Positions 40,565-63,104 of a DNA stretch of 64,000 bases are shown piece by piece. This DNA comes from a virus. The notes beneath the pieces were generated by a model, which made no database searches, was not told the origin of the DNA, and saw nothing but the letters and a program-made list of their open reading frames with translations. Both the position numbers and the translations under genes were made by a program. The stretch lies in IMG/VR virus record IMGVR_UViG_3300017646_000001, positions 53,657 through 117,656 of that record, one strand, 5' to 3'. Numbering within the stretch: the stretch's first letter is position 1; each line of letters begins with the position of its first letter.

Positions 40565-41001
40565 ACCCTATATTTCCTTACAGGGTTCTTGAACCATCTG
40601 ACTCCTTGTCTTCACAATATGGTTCATACGTTTCATATGTTTCATGAAACCAATCTTTCTCTTGCCTTTTCTTTCAAGGGCTTTCGGTAGGTAAGACATT
40701 CTTTCCCTACCGTTAATATTAGCCTGCTACGTAGTGGGGCCTTCTCGGGGAGTGGCCAAGAACGCGAACCGAATCCCACACGGAGCCCTCGTCAGAGAGA
40801 AATCTTTGAAGAGGAAAAGGGAGGTTGATCCACTTTAAGGATCGTGGGAGTTGCAAGCCAAGGGTTCTGCAAAGGTGAGTGGTTTTGATGCGACTCATTC
40901 TTTGGGTTTCAGGGACCCACCGTTCGGGGCGCTTCAGTTAATCTGGGGCCGCCCCGAACACCTATTTGGTTCAATCGTTTCCTTATACGCACAAACAATT
41001 A

Positions 41002-41466
41002 ATGGAAGCGACCCAAATGAGCCTCGCCCTAGCGATGATCCAAGCCAACGTACCGCTGCATCGTTGGAAGACTTTCGAAGCCGAACGACGTATGACCGAT
41101 CGCTCCAGCAGCGTGGAGATCGGTGGCTGGGGACGCACCAAGGATTGGAGCAAAGTAGCACGCGCTCTCCTTAACTCGTGTAGCCACCCCGACGCCGTTG
41201 ACCTCATCGCTCGGGAGTTCAACCAGTTCCCCGAATTGCTGCGCATCAACTTTCGTACTTTGGCGATTGAGGCCCACTCGGCATCGGGTAACGTGCGCAA
41301 AGGCATCGCTCGCCTCAACGATCGTTTGGGCGGCGCAATCCTGCGCGACAAGGACGTCCAAACCTTCAACCAGCGCGTTGAAGGCGTTGACGGTGCTCGG
41401 TACAAGAAAGTACGGGTAGACCCCGCTGTCGCTGGAGCCATGCGCAAGTATGGTATCATCAAATGA
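41002..41466 (+). CDS. Hypothetical protein
   Basis: ORF with typical codon usage; start uncertain. Confidence 0.55.
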   Translation: MEATQMSLALAMIQANVPLHRWKTFEAERRMTDRSSSVEIGGWGRTKDWSKVARALLNSCSHPDAVDLIAREFNQFPELLRINFRTLAIEAHSASGNVRKGIARLNDRLGGAILRDKDVQTFNQRVEGVDGARYKKVRVDPAVAGAMRKYGIIK

Positions 41467-41602
41467 GCCGGGTAGACGAACACGGGATTTCTGGCAAATC
41501 CCTCGACCCAGGCGCGCGCCTGGGTGAGCTCCAGGTGGCTGAGGATAAGACCCGTGCCGGTCGCTCCACCCTTTTCGTCAATGACCCCAAGGAAGCTCCG
41601 CT

Positions 41603-43086: not shown

Positions 43087-43192
43087 AAGCCCTGCGCCTA
43101 CTAGCCCGTTGGGCTATCGACCACGTGCCGCTGGGACGGTTCGCTCCGGCGGTATTCGGGTTCGCAGTGGGCGCTACTCCTAAGGAACGCAA

Positions 43193-43468
43193 ATGACTCA
43201 AGAGCGCTGCAAAGCCTGTAATGACGTCGGCATGGTGCACTGCTCCGACCCGACCAACTGTGGTGGAATGCAACCCGTGACGAAGCCGATGAAAGTGCCC
43301 GAAGGCCCGTTCTCGGTTTCGTTGGTGATGCAAGTTCTTGCCAATCGGTCGTATCACTTTACGTCGTTCAAGCAGTTTGAGGCGTTTTCGCGCGACGTGC
43401 TGAATGACCTCACTATCGCTGTTAACCAAGCGCCCGTGGAATTCAAGGCCATGACGTTGACGGACTAA
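43193..43468 (+). CDS. Hypothetical protein
   Basis: AAGGA RBS; CxxC..HC..C. Confidence 0.55.
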   Translation: MTQERCKACNDVGMVHCSDPTNCGGMQPVTKPMKVPEGPFSVSLVMQVLANRSYHFTSFKQFEAFSRDVLNDLTIAVNQAPVEFKAMTLTD

Positions 43469-43742
43469 CACAACCCGCGCTTTCCCTTCACCAACTAGAG
43501 TTGATGGAAGTTTGGCAATGACGGTGACACCCCCTGACCAGACAGCTCTTAATGACGAAATTGCTAACGAGTTACTCGATGAGATAGGGTGCTCAGATGA
43601 GGAACGTCGCCAAGTACTGTCAATGTTTAAGAATCCTTGGGATGCCCCTGTTCTTCTAAAGATATTAAGACTAGCAAAGAAACCCGAATCTTAGCTTTCA
43701 CATCTCGAGCGTATGAAAAATATTAAAGCAGAGTAGCGAGCC

Positions 43743-46039: not shown

Positions 46040-46610
46040 TGCCGATGATCAAGGTTGAGCTACTTCATCGCGAGCTTTCGGGGTGTTAGCTTAGTAGAAG
46101 GCCTTGTAGGTGAATGTAATGGTAGTGTGGAACCCTGGGGTTCCTGAATTTGAAGTGAATGGTGTCAAGACGGGAGTTCGATTCTCCCCGGCTCCACCAT
46201 GGTTAACTTAGGACCGAAGCCCTTAGAGCCCGAGCGCAAAGTGACGGATTGGGTGGTAGATTCGGAGATTTGAAAGTAGCCGGGAAACCGGAGCTGGATA
46301 AGGCCGGAGTAAACTAGGTTAACCTTGATGGGGCCGACTGGTTTCGATTGGCATACTGAAGCGGATAAAACTACTAGGCAAGCGGAGCCTTTTGTAAGTC
46401 CTGAGCGCGGAGTACGGCATATGCTATCCGGGGACTTGCATGAAACCAAGCAACGAAAGTAACTGCCAACGACAGCCAATTCCGCGCTGCTGCCTAAACA
46501 GCACAGCCGGTGGAGTACGTGAGGTAACTCCGGGGTAACCTGGATGGTAAACTCGCGCTGCCCGGACTCCCGATCATGACGGAGCCTCCATCACCAGAAT
46601 CCGGGCGGAC
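46040..46610 (+). ncRNA. ssrA: tmRNA, circularly permuted (two-piece); outer boundaries approximate
   Basis: T-arm and acceptor GACGGGAGTTCGATTCTCCCCGGCTCCACCA ends 46199, upstream of 5' end GGGGCCGACTGGTTTCGA at 46330; G3-U70 pair; tag ANDSQFRAAA* at 46465-46497. Confidence 0.9.
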
Positions 46611-46777: not shown

Positions 46778-46855
46778 CGGAACTTAGCACAGTCAGGCCA
46801 GTGCACTCGGTTTGGGACCGAGGGGTCGTAGGTTCGAATCCTACAGTTCCGACCA
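46778..46855 (+). tRNA. tRNA-Pro(TGG)
   Basis: Acceptor CGGAACT/AGTTCCG, anticodon arm CTCGG-TTTGGGA-CCGAG, GGTTCGAATCC, encoded CCA. Confidence 0.92.
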
Positions 46856-47076
46856 CCATTTGGTAGCTTTCGGCAGCAACCGTCCTCCAATGCCTGGAGG
46901 GTGCGGTTCGTTGTCAGGATGTGAATCCCTTCAGCAAGGTGCAGCATTCGGCCAAAGGGACGCCGCTGAGTCCTTACGAGCTAGAGAGTTACCAAATGGT
47001 GGTGTTGAAAGCGATGAAGCCGCGAACCATACTTGAGTTCGCAATACGGTGGAGCAAGTAGGCGTCACCTTCTAAT

Positions 47077-47163
47077 GCTAGTATGGTGAAATTGGCAGAC
47101 ACAGTAGGTTTAGGTCCTGCCGCTCGCAAGAGCGTCTCGGTTCGAGTCCGAGTACTAGCACCA
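47077..47163 (+). tRNA. tRNA-Leu(TAG)
   Basis: GCTAGTA/TACTAGC acceptor, loop TTTAGGT, long variable arm, GTTCGAGTC, CCA. Confidence 0.92.
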
Positions 47164-47165
47164 AT

Positions 47166-47254
47166 GCCCGAGTGGTGAAATTGGTAGACACATGGGACTT
47201 AAAATCCCCCGCCATTGACTTGGCGTACCGGTTCGATTCCGGTCTCGGGTACCA
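47166..47254 (+). tRNA. tRNA-Leu(TAA)
   Basis: GCCCGAG/CTCGGGT acceptor, loop CTTAAAA, long variable arm, GTTCGATTC, CCA. Confidence 0.93.
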
Positions 47255-60778: not shown

Positions 60779-60835
60779 GATCAAGCGGCTCTGTCGTTTG
60801 AATATTCCTACTGTTATAACGATTACGAGATCACC

Positions 60836-61501
60836 ATGTCGAACAAGACCGAAAGCAAGGTTCAAGAAATCACCGTCACCCGCGCCCTGTCTGAGCTGAA
60901 GTCGCTCCAGGACCGTATCACTGCTGCCGTACAGCGCCCGTTTATTGCCCTCACCCTAGGCCAAGGCGACAACACCAAGATGTACAAGGACGCCCGGGAC
61001 GTGGACGCCGTGCGCGCCGAACTGGTGTCCAACTTCGATTCGGCCAGCGGCCTGATCCAGCGCCGCCACGCCTTGAAGCGCGCCGTGATGGCGTCCAACG
61101 CCGTGACCCGCGTTACTGTGGACGGCCGCGAGATGACCGTTGCTGAAGCGATCGAACGCAAGCAGAGCATCGGATACGCTCGAGCCCTGTTGCAGTCCAT
61201 GATCGAACAGCGCCGTCTGCGCACTTCCGAGCATGCCGCCATCGAGCAGAAGCTGACCGAAGAGATTCGGCACATGGCTGAAGTGATGAACTCGCGGGAA
61301 AGTGCCGACGCCACCAAGCAGAACAACATCAAGGCCGTCAACGACCAACAGCGGCGTGTTTCTGAGCCGGCCCTACTCGATCCGAACCAGCTGGACGAAA
61401 AGATCAAGAACATGGAAGAGCACATCCAAGCCTTCCTGGGCGAGATCGACTTCGTGCTGAGCGAGTCGAACGCTATCACCCGCATCAAGGTGGAAGCGTA
61501 A
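60836..61501 (+). CDS. Coiled-coil protein, DIP1984-like family (function unknown)
   Basis: Duplicated motif ITVTRALSELK / MTVAEAIERK and ASNAVTRV / ESNAITRI flanking coiled coils; strong codon bias. Confidence 0.7.
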   Translation: MSNKTESKVQEITVTRALSELKSLQDRITAAVQRPFIALTLGQGDNTKMYKDARDVDAVRAELVSNFDSASGLIQRRHALKRAVMASNAVTRVTVDGREMTVAEAIERKQSIGYARALLQSMIEQRRLRTSEHAAIEQKLTEEIRHMAEVMNSRESADATKQNNIKAVNDQQRRVSEPALLDPNQLDEKIKNMEEHIQAFLGEIDFVLSESNAITRIKVEA

Positions 61502-61511
61502 CCGTTTTGTT

Positions 61512-61870
61512 TTGAGTCGCTTGTCCCGCACATCGTGGACAGCCCCGCTGTTGCCCAGAGCGGTATATCTGGGCAGTCTCTTTCGATGAGAACCGACACT
61601 TAAATCAGCTTTGTTGCGGGTTCGACTCCCGCCCGCGAAAGCGGTGGCCAAATTGGTAAAGGCAGCTGACCAGCGAGTGCGCAGGAGCTCTAATTCCTGC
61701 GATAAAGCTCAAAGTTCAATGCTGAAAGTTATATCGGTTAAAGCTTTAGAGACTCTAGCGTTGAAAGCTGTAAGGATCAGGGATGAAAGCTATATTAAAT
61801 CCCGCATCAAACGGTTTATGAGCTAGGCTGGCTCGACGGTGTACCGGCGGGCTGGGAACAAGGGACTCAA
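61512..61870 (+). ncRNA. Unassigned ~360-nt structured RNA with permuted tRNA-like domain and heptamer repeats
   Basis: Terminal pairing 61512-61527/61854-61870; T-arm before D-arm at 61605-61669; AAAG(C/T)T repeats 61704-61792. Confidence 0.7.
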
Positions 61871-61876
61871 CCTCTC

Positions 61877-61902
61877 GTGGGAGGCCGCATTTGGCCTCCC
61901 AC
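61877..61902 (+). terminator. GC-rich hairpin after RNA (no U-tract)
   Basis: GTGGGAGGCC-GCATTT-GGCCTCCCAC. Confidence 0.4.
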
Positions 61903-62184
61903 ACCCATATTTGGAGAAATTATGTCGCGCCGGTTCCGCAACAAGAAAGCCTACACCAAGCTGTTTTTGATGTTTTACTTTACCCTCTTGGTAGGAACCG
62001 CTCTAGGCGCTGCTTGGGTTCGATGAGCGTGGTGCATGACCTCTCCTAGGCAAGGAGGCCGGTCATGTACCAATTCGCGTTGGGGATGCTGCTAGCCGTG
62101 CTTCTGGCAGTACTTATCATCCTGTTGTTCTGTACCAAGTGGCACAAGTAGGGCCGGGATAACTTCCCGGCCCGAAAACTAGGT

Positions 62185-62271
62185 AACGTTGCGTCGACGC
62201 AACGTTCTGAAGCGACGCTATATGCGTATGACGCGAAGTCATGTTATAATACGGTTTTACATCCACAGACC
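62185..62271 (+). promoter_or_regulatory. Promoter repeat copy 3
   Basis: 22-bp perfect palindrome 62185-62206, TATAAT 62245. Confidence 0.8.
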
Positions 62272-62287
62272 CTGAAAGGAGCCCATC

Positions 62288-62548
62288 ATGATCGCATACG
62301 AAACCTGGAAAGCTCGCGCGGATCGTCTGTACGGCAATTCGGACGAGTTCAAGATGTACGGCACGGTGGTGTACGACCGGTACGGCAATGTTGTGGACCA
62401 GTGGGAGCCCAACGACGAATCCTGGACTCGGCCCACCGCTTCGCCTTCGTCCCCACCCACGGTAGGCAGCGTCGTGTCCAATTCCATCTCCGGTTGGACG
62501 ACCTGGGCCGCTGCTGCCTTTGTACTGGCCAAGCTGATCTGGGGCTAA
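62288..62548 (+). CDS. Hypothetical early protein, C-terminal membrane anchor
   Basis: AAGGAG RBS after promoter repeat. Confidence 0.65.
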   Translation: MIAYETWKARADRLYGNSDEFKMYGTVVYDRYGNVVDQWEPNDESWTRPTASPSSPPTVGSVVSNSISGWTTWAAAAFVLAKLIWG

Positions 62549-62559
62549 GGAGAACGTAT

Positions 62560-62691
62560 ATGCTTATGCAACCCGAATTCCGCCGCGCTCTGCAAACCAA
62601 AGCCCAACGCCGCCGTTCCAACCTCTTGGGCTTTGTGTTGTCGTTGGCCGTGTTGCTGCCTCTGGTATACATGGCTGTGGAGACGCTGTAA
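62560..62691 (+). CDS. Small membrane protein
   Basis: AAGGAG RBS, one hydrophobic helix. Confidence 0.5.
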   Translation: MLMQPEFRRALQTKAQRRRSNLLGFVLSLAVLLPLVYMAVETL

Positions 62692-62942
62692 TGTCGTACG
62701 GTTCTGTAGACGGCTTGGAGTTCTCCGCCCAGCAGGCACACGTGGAGGATAGCCTAGCCCTGCAGCGCGCAGCCCGCGCTCAGAACAACAACCCCACAGG
62801 TGAGTGCGAGGATTGTGGGGAAGAAATTCCTGCCGCCCGCTTACGCGTGATCCCAAACGCGGCTTGCTGCGTCCAATGTCAGTCGATTCGAGACCGCACC
62901 CCGCGCCGCCTGTTTACTTACTCAAATCCATACGTGCCGTGA
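62691..62942 (+). CDS. DksA/TraR-type C4 zinc-finger protein
   Basis: CEDCGEEIPAARLRVIP..CCVQCQ. Confidence 0.85.
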   Translation: MSYGSVDGLEFSAQQAHVEDSLALQRAARAQNNNPTGECEDCGEEIPAARLRVIPNAACCVQCQSIRDRTPRRLFTYSNPYVP

Positions 62943-63104
62943 CTAGATTGGTATCCGATCGTAACCAGGTTTAACAAGTTCTTACAAAACCGCGCCCGCC
63001 TTCTTGTCGGGCGCAATATTATTTAACTCTTCCGTTGATTAGACGGCGGGGCCGTACGGCGCACGCCTGCACACCGCCCTTCCTTCACCGCTGGAGATAC
63101 GAGC

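Follow-up and report, generated by a model that had tools for sequence, protein, structure and literature searches.

The 83-nt element at positions 61597-61679 of the window (the whole 64,000-nucleotide stretch of viral DNA that was analysed) is a real, selected and correctly folding tRNA-shaped domain, circularly permuted and with its acceptor reduced to 4 bp and a GAAA cap. It is not a separate gene. The domain is plugged into a stable and abundant phage non-coding RNA of ~359 nt (61512-61870), and it appears highly probable that it is a selected tRNA-like part of this larger molecule. The RNA itself belongs to a family of conserved, expressed, structured phage RNAs that is widespread yet essentially uncharacterised, and within this family the permuted domain is optional and rare.

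Read 5' to 3', the domain consists of the 3' strand of an anticodon-type stem, the T arm, the GAAA-capped acceptor stub, U8-G9, the D arm and finally the opposite (5') strand of the anticodon-type stem. Its parts are as follows.

61597-61600, + strand: CACU, 5' strand of a 4-bp extension under the tRNA-like domain, pairing with AGUG 61676-61679 across an internal loop (sequence and RNAfold)
61605-61610, + strand: UCAGCU, the counterpart of the 3' anticodon-stem strand of a tRNA; joins the domain to the rest of the RNA
61611-61615, + strand: variable loop UUGUU; its final U (position 48) forms the Levitt pair with A15
61616-61632, + strand: T arm GCGGG-UUCGACU-CCCGC (in DNA letters GCGGG-TTCGACT-CCCGC)
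61633-61644, + strand: acceptor stub CCGC/GCGG with its GAAA tetraloop cap (CCGC-GAAA-GCGG)
61645-61663, + strand: U8-G9 (TG, 61645-61646) and D arm GCC-AAAUUGGUAAA-GGC, with A14, A15 and G18G19
61647-61663, + strand: the same D arm as read from the sequence in DNA letters, GCC-AAATTGGTAAA-GGC
61664-61669, + strand: AGCUGA, the counterpart of the 5' anticodon-stem strand; partner of 61605-61610
61676-61679, + strand: AGUG, 3' strand of the 4-bp extension

All coordinates in the preliminary description proved exact when the sequence was re-read (CACT at 61597-61600, TCAGC at 61605-09, the T arm, CCGC-GAAA-GCGG, TG, the D arm, GCTGA at 61665-69 and AGTG). The anticodon-type stem TCAGC/GCTGA reported there is present, but turned out to be 6 bp long (TCAGCT/AGCTGA). 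The tertiary nucleotides of the elbow are complete: U8, A14, G18G19, T54-A58, G53-C61 and the A15:U48 Levitt pair. The RNAfold minimum free energy (MFE) structure of a 101-nt stretch is a cloverleaf-like fold of the domain. The folding energy of this stretch is unremarkable (z = 0.17; 114 of 200 shuffles fold equally well), so thermodynamics alone is no proof of the domain. A generic pattern, GGTTCGANTCC-N11-17-TRNNNNARYYGGTA, which describes a T loop, 11-17 nt and then U8-R9 with a canonical D loop, at a spacing below that of adjacent tRNA genes, has a single match in the 64 kb and none in 100 dinucleotide shuffles. In the MFE structure of the full-length RNA, positions 61605-61609 are paired over a long range with 61721-61725. 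Closure of the domain by this alternative was dropped in favour of the local stem, since the local stem covaries in homologs. Neither ARAGORN nor the Rfam tRNA model reports a tRNA at the domain. The features of a functional tRNA are missing: the 4-bp stub is sealed, and there is no free 3' end and no anticodon loop. The earlier statement that the element cannot be aminoacylated is borne out by the sealed acceptor.

The preliminary description had also suggested that the element lies within a larger RNA. This was confirmed, and the RNA has now been delimited, found to be expressed and assigned to a family. The features around the domain are listed below.

60836-61501, + strand: upstream gene, homolog of T5.085 of phage T5 (phrog_1491; PHROG match 1e-55), the conserved left neighbour of the RNA family
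61512-61528, + strand: 5' strand of P1, UUGAGUCGCUUGUCCCG, the closing stem of the entire RNA (inverted repeat I1; P1 covaries in the family)
61538-61574, + strand: two 5' hairpins, GACAGC/GCUGUU and GCCCAGA-GCGGUAUA-UCUGGGC (MFE helices)
61680-61701, + strand: hairpin CGCAGGAG-CUCUAA-UUCCUGCG, directly 5' of the repeats (MFE; a hairpin is aligned at the same place in most family members)
61704-61791, + strand: heptad-repeat region; AAAG(C/U)U occurs six times, with starts at 61704, 61711, 61725, 61740, 61764 and 61786
61797-61805, + strand: AAAUCC-CGC; AAAUCC is invariant in the family, and CCCGC contributes the 5' strand to the 3'-domain helix
61847-61852, + strand: GCGGG-C, 3' strand of the 3'-domain helix, inside the conserved GGCUG
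61853-61870, + strand: 3' strand of P1, UGGGAACAAGGGACUCAA (inverted repeat; P1 covariation in the family)
61877-61902, + strand: GC-rich hairpin GUGGGAGGCC-GCAUUU-GGCCUCCCAC past the RNA (inverted repeat I7), terminator-like, with a weak U tract

The element lies in a 420-nt gap between a 221-aa gene on the left (60836-61501) and a small ORF on the right (start 61922). The RNA starts at 61512 on the same strand as the upstream gene and directly downstream of its stop codon (61499-61501). The whole gap folds much better than its shuffles (z = -4.96; 0 of 100 shuffles do as well). P1 is a stem of 16-17 nt (61512-61528/61853-61870) with, by eye, one bulge and one mismatch, and CCCGC 61801-61805 pairs with GCGGG 61847-61851 to form the helix of the 3' domain. 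Hairpins with a GGUAUAU loop that resemble the 5' hairpins, their stems differing, were noticed by eye in two other family members (L231 and L004). A promoter scan of 60800-62300 returned no promoter-like site. The hairpin at 61877-61902 is absent from the list of the terminator scan, and the RNA contigs described below end upstream of it.

The RNA is strongly expressed. One soil metatranscriptome contains a contig of 336 nt covering 61527-61862 at a depth of 500.8 with 0 differences from the window; in the same run the next coding contig (62272-62964) has a depth of 9 and the upstream gene has none. A contig from a soil metatranscriptome of a second study covers 61538-61862 at a depth of 3.2, also with 0 differences. 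Both are unbroken at the tRNA-like domain, and the RNA is continuous across it. These contigs give neither the ends nor the strand of the RNA, and they lack P1's first 15 nt and its last 8; the plus strand is assigned from the tRNA features. Close relatives at the DNA level, of which the read-covered parts of the stretch could be compared, point the same way. One contig differs from 61621-61813 at 3 of 193 nt, while pieces of its flanking coding sequence carry 21/134, 17/138 and 35/210 differences (12-17%). A second, diverged relative shows 10 differences and 1 gap over 61649-61802 and 5 differences over 61764-61964, and its coding flanks match in short pieces only. Conservation is thus higher in the RNA than in the surrounding genes.

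Direct sequence searches were unproductive: blastn with the 451-nt gap found no match among 50,697 phage records, and two near-exact patterns of the element had 0 matches each in IMG/VR. The family was reached through the upstream gene, 148 tblastn matches to which led to 113 distinct downstream regions. An anchor helix of the form AAAUC(C/U)-NNN...N'N'N'-(G/A)G(C/U) is found in 99 of 114 distinct loci, including T5, against an average of 11.8 in shuffles, and it is realised with 30 different pair combinations. A clear P1 closing stem of 13-21 bp was recognised in 61 regions. The family RNAs have a median length of 320 nt (range 213-484), compared with 359 nt in the window. They share a plan that consists of a long P1, a 5' domain, a variable slot, a hairpin, 4-7 heptad AAAGNU repeats and an AAAUCC...GGCUG helix. 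The window RNA follows it in its placement after phrog_1491, its six AAAG(C/U)U repeats, its AAAUCC-helix-GGCUG and a P1 3' strand that begins directly after GGC.

The shared helices show covariation. In an alignment of 46 sequences, where the L151 row lacks its 3' end (its coordinates being guessed) and the window row is misaligned at P1, P1 and the anchor helix are 87.7% paired against 59.4% in shuffles (0 of 500 reach this value). Both sides have changed in 17 of 19 pairs, and the covariation score is 0.693 against 0.206 for shuffled and 0.12-0.22 for slid controls. The 3'-domain helix (helix 2) is 99.1% paired, with both sides changed in 4 of 5 pairs. The repeats keep a strict register: among 337 AAAG-to-AAAG gaps in 61 RNAs, spacings of 7, 14 and 21 nt occur 75, 51 and 22 times, and the off-register spacings of 6 and 8 nt only 2 and 5 times. 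This 7-nt register of NAG triplets is reminiscent of the HutP binding site.

The family is located in or beside tRNA clusters. Among isolated phages it occurs in the model phage T5, after T5.085 (AY543070, roughly 43,150-43,500, minus strand) and there without the tRNA-like domain, in the T5-like Enterobacter phage KKP_3711 and in Pseudomonas phage VCM, and it is also present in many tRNA-rich phages. The records of the three named phages leave the gap that holds the RNA without an RNA annotation. Rfam appears to cover just an 86-nt 5' fragment of some members, under the name RAGATH-27 (RF03100), a candidate sRNA motif of unknown function. AT-rich members match this model over their first 86 nt and over its full length, with 61.6 bits (L144) and 53.8 bits (L158), both short of its cut-off, which is 76.1; no match is given by T5, KKP_3711, VCM or, at E up to 10, by the window RNA. 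The matching relatives share P1, the repeats and the anchor helix with the window RNA. The Rfam model itself annotates one hairpin and has neither the closing stem nor the repeats, the 3' helix or the tRNA slot. A literature search covering main articles found no paper naming RAGATH-27, and none describing the RNA family. Three leads were set aside as unrelated as far as the passages concerned go: the AcrIIIA1 protein-RNA complex (PMC11662646), the 189-aa protein Rad from the T5 family, which is of the TOPRIM type (bioRxiv 10.1101/2023.03.15.532788), and PMC10690425, a survey of 10,006 candidate viral RNAs. What has been exposed is thus a conserved, highly expressed RNA family of ~320 nt with a 7-nt repeat register and a slot that can host a tRNA. 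Because both T5 and E. coli are tractable systems, direct functional tests of the family are feasible.

The tRNA-shaped domain occupies the variable slot, which the alignment places between the 5' domain and the pre-repeat hairpin and which holds hairpins only in most members. Two pattern scans were employed. The first, run on IMG/VR, required a T loop and a D loop; of its 62 loci, about 24 have a sealed hairpin. The second demanded a T loop placed 45-75 nt upstream of AAAGYUNAAAG, and 81 loci were parsed among the matches listed. Among these 81 there are at least 33 family-like RNAs with at least 4 repeats, and permuted sealed modules were found in 6 of the 33 among the matches listed (L204, L199, L244, L260, L291 and L273). 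Together with the window, at least 7 family RNAs carry such a module. L204 and L199 have an AAAG(C/U)U run after the module, as the window does, and by eye short extensions analogous to CACU/AGUG; L204 also has the same upstream gene. L273 comes from a complete genome without a detectable phrog_1491 homolog. Among the 113 distinct loci found by protein, a permuted module was seen by eye in 2 and a normal-order tRNA-like unit in 2.

Absence from relatives had been named in the preliminary description as an argument against the mimic; six other phages turned out to have homologous modules with compensatory changes. The seven sealed stems are of 4, 4, 5, 6, 7, 8 and 8 bp, those of 7-8 bp belonging to L244, L260 and L273, and the caps include GAAA in the window and UUCG in L199; that of L273 can be read as UUCG, the parser giving UC after stem extension. 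All seven modules, among the matches listed, retain U8, A14, G18G19, T54-A58 and G53-C61, but the conservation of those letters is partly by construction, since four of the seven came from the pattern that requires a T loop and the classifier required D-loop features. Helix covariation and the 15:48 pair were imposed neither by the scans nor by the classifier. The Levitt pair is A15:U48 in the window and G15:C48 in the 6 other modules. Over four helices and seven sequences, 94.3% of the cells are paired, compared with 64.2% after shuffling (none of 500 shuffles reaches this), both sides have changed in 14 of 18 pairs, and the covariation score is 0.820 against 0.208 for shuffled and at most 0.196 for slid controls. 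All four of the acceptor-stub pairs counted covary. The T stem is paired in 7 of 7 homologs, with both sides changed in 3 of 5 pairs, and the anticodon-type stem covaries in 6 of 7 (helix 1 of the module alignment, where the window row is off by one column and so produces 'not paired' cells). Judged by these sequence comparisons, the tRNA-shaped domain appears to be under purifying selection in the seven members.

In other members, normal-order tRNAs occupy the same slot within P1-closed RNAs. ARAGORN calls seven of the eight cases checked: Gly-gcc, Thr-tgt twice, Leu-taa, one with the anticodon ata and two with aberrant loops. The eighth is a T-arm minihelix only.

The best explanation as a whole, in which we place slightly better than even confidence, is that a selected tRNA-shaped plug-in domain equips the family RNA with an elbow that serves as a handle. 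The proposed mechanism is as follows. Owing to the short, sealed acceptor, RNase P, 3' processing, CCA addition and aminoacylation would be unable to act; the 4-bp stub would thus block processing, and the RNA would stay whole while displaying a tRNA elbow. The elbow would then be a handle for factors that recognise the tRNA shape. Candidates are enzymes of the TruB, TrmA or Dus type, acting as folding chaperones, or another tRNA-binding protein of host or phage. A second, oligomeric partner would be bound by P1 and the heptad repeats, and the upstream gene may encode it. The modular logic would be that of the YrlA Y RNAs, minus Ro60. We regard this elbow-handle mechanism, which is drawn by analogy with YrlA, as tentative, and it may well turn out to be wrong. 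The sealed stems of the family range from 4 to 8 bp and those of 6-8 bp are maybe RNase P substrates, so the argument from a non-processable acceptor is weaker family-wide.

The domain could alternatively be a passive scaffold for stability or folding with no partner of its own, which we consider rather unlikely. Engineered tRNA scaffolds carry a cargo RNA via the anticodon stem, and the attachment here is of that kind. The high abundance of the RNA relative to its neighbours would fit, and so would a variable slot with plain hairpins in most members. Plain hairpins are, however, evidently enough for most members, and the strict retention by 7 of 7 modules of U8, A14, G18G19, T54-A58 and of a 15:48 pair that covaries exceeds what a stable stem-loop needs.

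A more far-reaching version of the handle idea can be formulated, although we think it improbable as it stands. The T5.085-downstream RNA may be the scaffold of a new phage ribonucleoprotein, Y-RNA-like but without Ro60, whose heptads load an oligomeric protein at one subunit per 7 nt (T5.085 being a candidate) and whose slot is a tRNA port. If this is true, some phages would have a cleavable slot tRNA that yields a two-piece RNA plus a tRNA, and others would have hard-wired a permuted, sealed body. The complex would be permanently coupled to the tRNA-handling machinery and could sense, protect or hijack tRNA processing or repair. The candidate protein offers no functional clue: the upstream protein has no Pfam family and no sequence relative in PDB, its AF2 model is helical (pLDDT 85), its best fold match in PDB is 3kdq (function unknown; E = 0.016), and its fold matches in BFVD and Atlas are uncharacterised phage proteins only. 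In some records phrog_1491 is labelled 'tail fiber protein', a label that these results leave unsupported.

Among known systems, the closest likeness is to the YrlA RNAs. Rfam YrlA (RF02553) matches 61610-61665 over model positions 25-83 of 114 with 28.3 bits (E = 0.00045 in a 501-nt search; 2.6e-5 per genome). In the Infernal comparison proposed in the preliminary description, the YrlA model aligns to the core, below the gathering cut-off of 69, and the tRNA model is silent. The T-before-D topology noted there as shared with YrlA holds, both in the order of stem-loops (T, acceptor stub, D) and in the tertiary nucleotides; the remark that YrlA RNAs are much shorter was mistaken, as the Rfam model has 114 positions and the element 83 nt. 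The two have in common the V loop, T arm, closed acceptor-like stem-loop and D arm, ends that exit via the anticodon-stem side, tRNA tertiary nucleotides with the G15:C48 / A15:U48 alternation, a body that cannot be aminoacylated, and an occurrence in phages. According to the YrlA passages of Chen et al. (2014, PMC4201824), the tRNA-like domains of YrlA are modified by TruB and DusA, and RNase P cleaved the M. smegmatis YrlA alone, which was ascribed to its 7-bp acceptor stem.

The two also differ. A YrlA RNA is ~114 nt long and its ends bind Ro60; the module here forms part of the interior of a ~359-nt RNA that has a conserved core of its own. The motif GNCGAAN0-1G near the 5' end of YrlA, a proposed Ro60 contact (Chen et al. 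2014, PMC4201824, in the same passages), has no exact match anywhere in 61512-61870, and in 61512-61625 none even with one mismatch allowed. The record is a 117,656-bp genome with direct terminal repeats, rated 100% complete, of which the window is the last 64 kb, and the RNA region is single-copy in it. No Ro60 (TROVE) gene was found near the element, as had been stated earlier, or anywhere in this genome, so that no such gene lies within about 4 kb on the same strand as is typical of YrlA. The wider search for Ro60 and RtcB suggested in the preliminary description found neither gene in the complete genome, control genomes being detected in both cases. By this comparison, the element is likened to the tRNA-like module of YrlA, yet it appears without three of the features that define YrlA and is not a free-standing Y RNA.

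It might still be an orphan Y RNA module of the YrlA type, the phage giving the RNA and the host giving Ro60 (Rsr). To this we attach a low probability. The shared topology and the rank of YrlA as best Rfam match speak for it, and the low score counts little against it: of 15 more phage loci with a sealed module that were searched, including 5 from records with TROVE, none reaches the YrlA cut-off, which is therefore of little use as a test in phages. Weak YrlA matches were found in 13 of 44 virus records with a homolog of the upstream gene. ARAGORN, run on 20 of the 25 matched loci, identified almost all as junctions of adjacent tRNA genes, a false-positive class for YrlA searches described in a passage of Chen et al. 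(2014, PMC4201824). The exception is a 182-kb record (G013), in which several genuine modules of the T / sealed-acceptor / D type lie right next to a TROVE gene and score only 28-34 bits. TROVE is present in 9 of 24 virus records with sealed modules and missing in 15 (4 with and 4 without among the 8 that are at least 90% complete), and the family member L273 has the GGGUUACUUCG motif found before Rsr-linked modules. Against a host Ro60 stand the missing GNCGAAN0-1G, the absence of TROVE from the complete genome and from 5 other permuted-module records searched, 3 of these at least 90% complete, and the position of the module inside a larger conserved RNA that is mostly module-less in other members.

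Circularly permuted, sealed tRNA mimics had been described as the effector part of YrlA RNAs that bind Ro60. Selection of the same design in a different RNA without Ro60 suggests that the tRNA elbow is a portable handle that can be acquired independently.

The preliminary description had further proposed an elbow decoy for tRNA-binding proteins or anticodon nucleases, or a processing signal within the larger RNA, both of them conjectural readings. A sponge for tRNA-targeting defence nucleases of the host is conceivable. Phages like this one, rich in tRNAs, are known to use tRNAs of their own against defences that cleave tRNAs; in the passages of bioRxiv 10.1101/2023.03.15.532788 on this subject, a tRNA-Tyr of the T5 family acts against retron Ec78. 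The RNA is also abundant. Since the anticodon loop, the usual cut site of such nucleases, is missing, the decoy is very unlikely, and the rarity of the domain within the family adds to this. The least credible and already disfavoured reading, that of a neutral relic of a tRNA gene that was inserted or tandemly duplicated in a permissive loop, partly deleted and is now decaying, draws on the location of the family in or beside tRNA clusters, on the real tRNAs in the same slot (two of the seven ARAGORN calls having aberrant anticodon loops) and on tandem duplication with deletion being the standard route to permuted tRNA genes, but is contradicted by the compensatory changes that seven diverged phages show in each of the four helices, by the GAAA and UUCG caps, and by the 3 differences in 193 nt of a close relative whose flanking genes differ by 12-17%.

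Three other systems can be compared with the RNA and its domain. GOLLD and ROOL are large structured RNAs that occur often in phages and adjoin tRNAs, according to the part of PMC5737381 that deals with them. The present family is likewise a large structured phage RNA near tRNAs, but it is much shorter (median 320 nt) and has other conserved features, and the 501 nt around the element contain no Rfam match to GOLLD or ROOL at E up to 10. The same phage encodes a two-piece tmRNA at 46107-46588 (ARAGORN and RF04321; the sole tmRNA call). Its gene order is permuted identically, with the T arm followed by the acceptor 3' strand and the acceptor 5' strand; in the tmRNA, however, the loop is cut to give a chargeable 7-bp acceptor with CCA, and there is a tag reading frame. 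The element has a 4-bp GAAA-capped stub without CCA, and the two T arms are unrelated in sequence. In the permuted tRNA genes of Cyanidioschyzon merolae, the 3' half precedes the 5' half and the transcripts are processed to normal tRNAs; the element differs from these in having neither an anticodon loop nor a free acceptor end.

The family RNA is present in phage T5 itself, where it lies 3' of T5.085 (locus L232, 3140-3502; about 43,150-43,500 of AY543070, minus strand) and contains the closing stem, the AAAG repeats and the AAACCCUAG...CUAGGCUG helix. The annotation of AY543070 records only the promoter of the next gene at this site. T5 also has, at 40848-41566, an annotated 'RNAX stable RNA with unknown functions', which is distinct from the family RNA. 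Throughout the family, successive AAAGNU motifs are held strictly to a 7-nt register (window 61704-61791; family alignment A3). The AGCU within them is self-complementary, which makes pairing between repeats or between molecules conceivable.

In four loci, an apparently normal tRNA gene is found within the family RNA closed by the long stem P1:
L247, 2688-2760, tRNA Gly-gcc
L276, 2768-2844, tRNA Thr-tgt
L294, 6015-6091, tRNA Leu-taa
L309, 1934-2006, tRNA Thr-tgt
If these tRNAs are excised, the family RNA would be left in two pieces joined by P1.

One member-like RNA combines features of two groups:
L273, 5291-5364 and flanks, minus strand, family-like RNA in the complete 64.6-kb virus record G069
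It carries the GGGUUACUUCG motif and the V hairpin, typical of phage modules linked to Rsr (the TROVE/Ro60 partner of YrlA Y RNAs), together with the AAAG repeats and the 3' anchor helix of the family. The complete G069 genome lacks a TROVE gene, and no phrog_1491 homolog is detectable in it.

A TROVE gene does occur in another phage, the 182-kb virus record G013:
contig 2140-2820, TROVE/Ro60 gene
Upstream of it lies an array of at least four modules of T arm, sealed acceptor and D arm (L061 1-1000, L083 1200-1573), each with an AGUGUAG...GUUACUUC motif ahead of it; the array looks like a multi-copy YrlA-like array. Sealed-acceptor tRNA-like modules were also seen in phages that lack TROVE, one of them a complete 316-kb record; there they lie within arrays of tRNA genes (IMG/VR loci L175, L191, L192/L223/L196, L208 and L186). 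Since AAAG repeats are absent at these loci, their modules seem to be further, separate classes.

Other genes of the window phage:
46107-46588, two-piece tmRNA, circularly permuted, whose tag is ANDSQFRAAA (called by ARAGORN and by Rfam RF04321, 84 bits)
46778-47254, tRNA-Pro and two tRNA-Leu genes, following the tmRNA
62691-62939, gene for a DksA-like zinc-finger protein (phrog_54, E = 8e-16), some 0.8 kb 3' of the family RNA
The T arm of the tmRNA is unrelated in sequence to that of the permuted tRNA-like element at 61597-61679. RNA contigs at depth 9 span 62272-62964, over the DksA-like gene.
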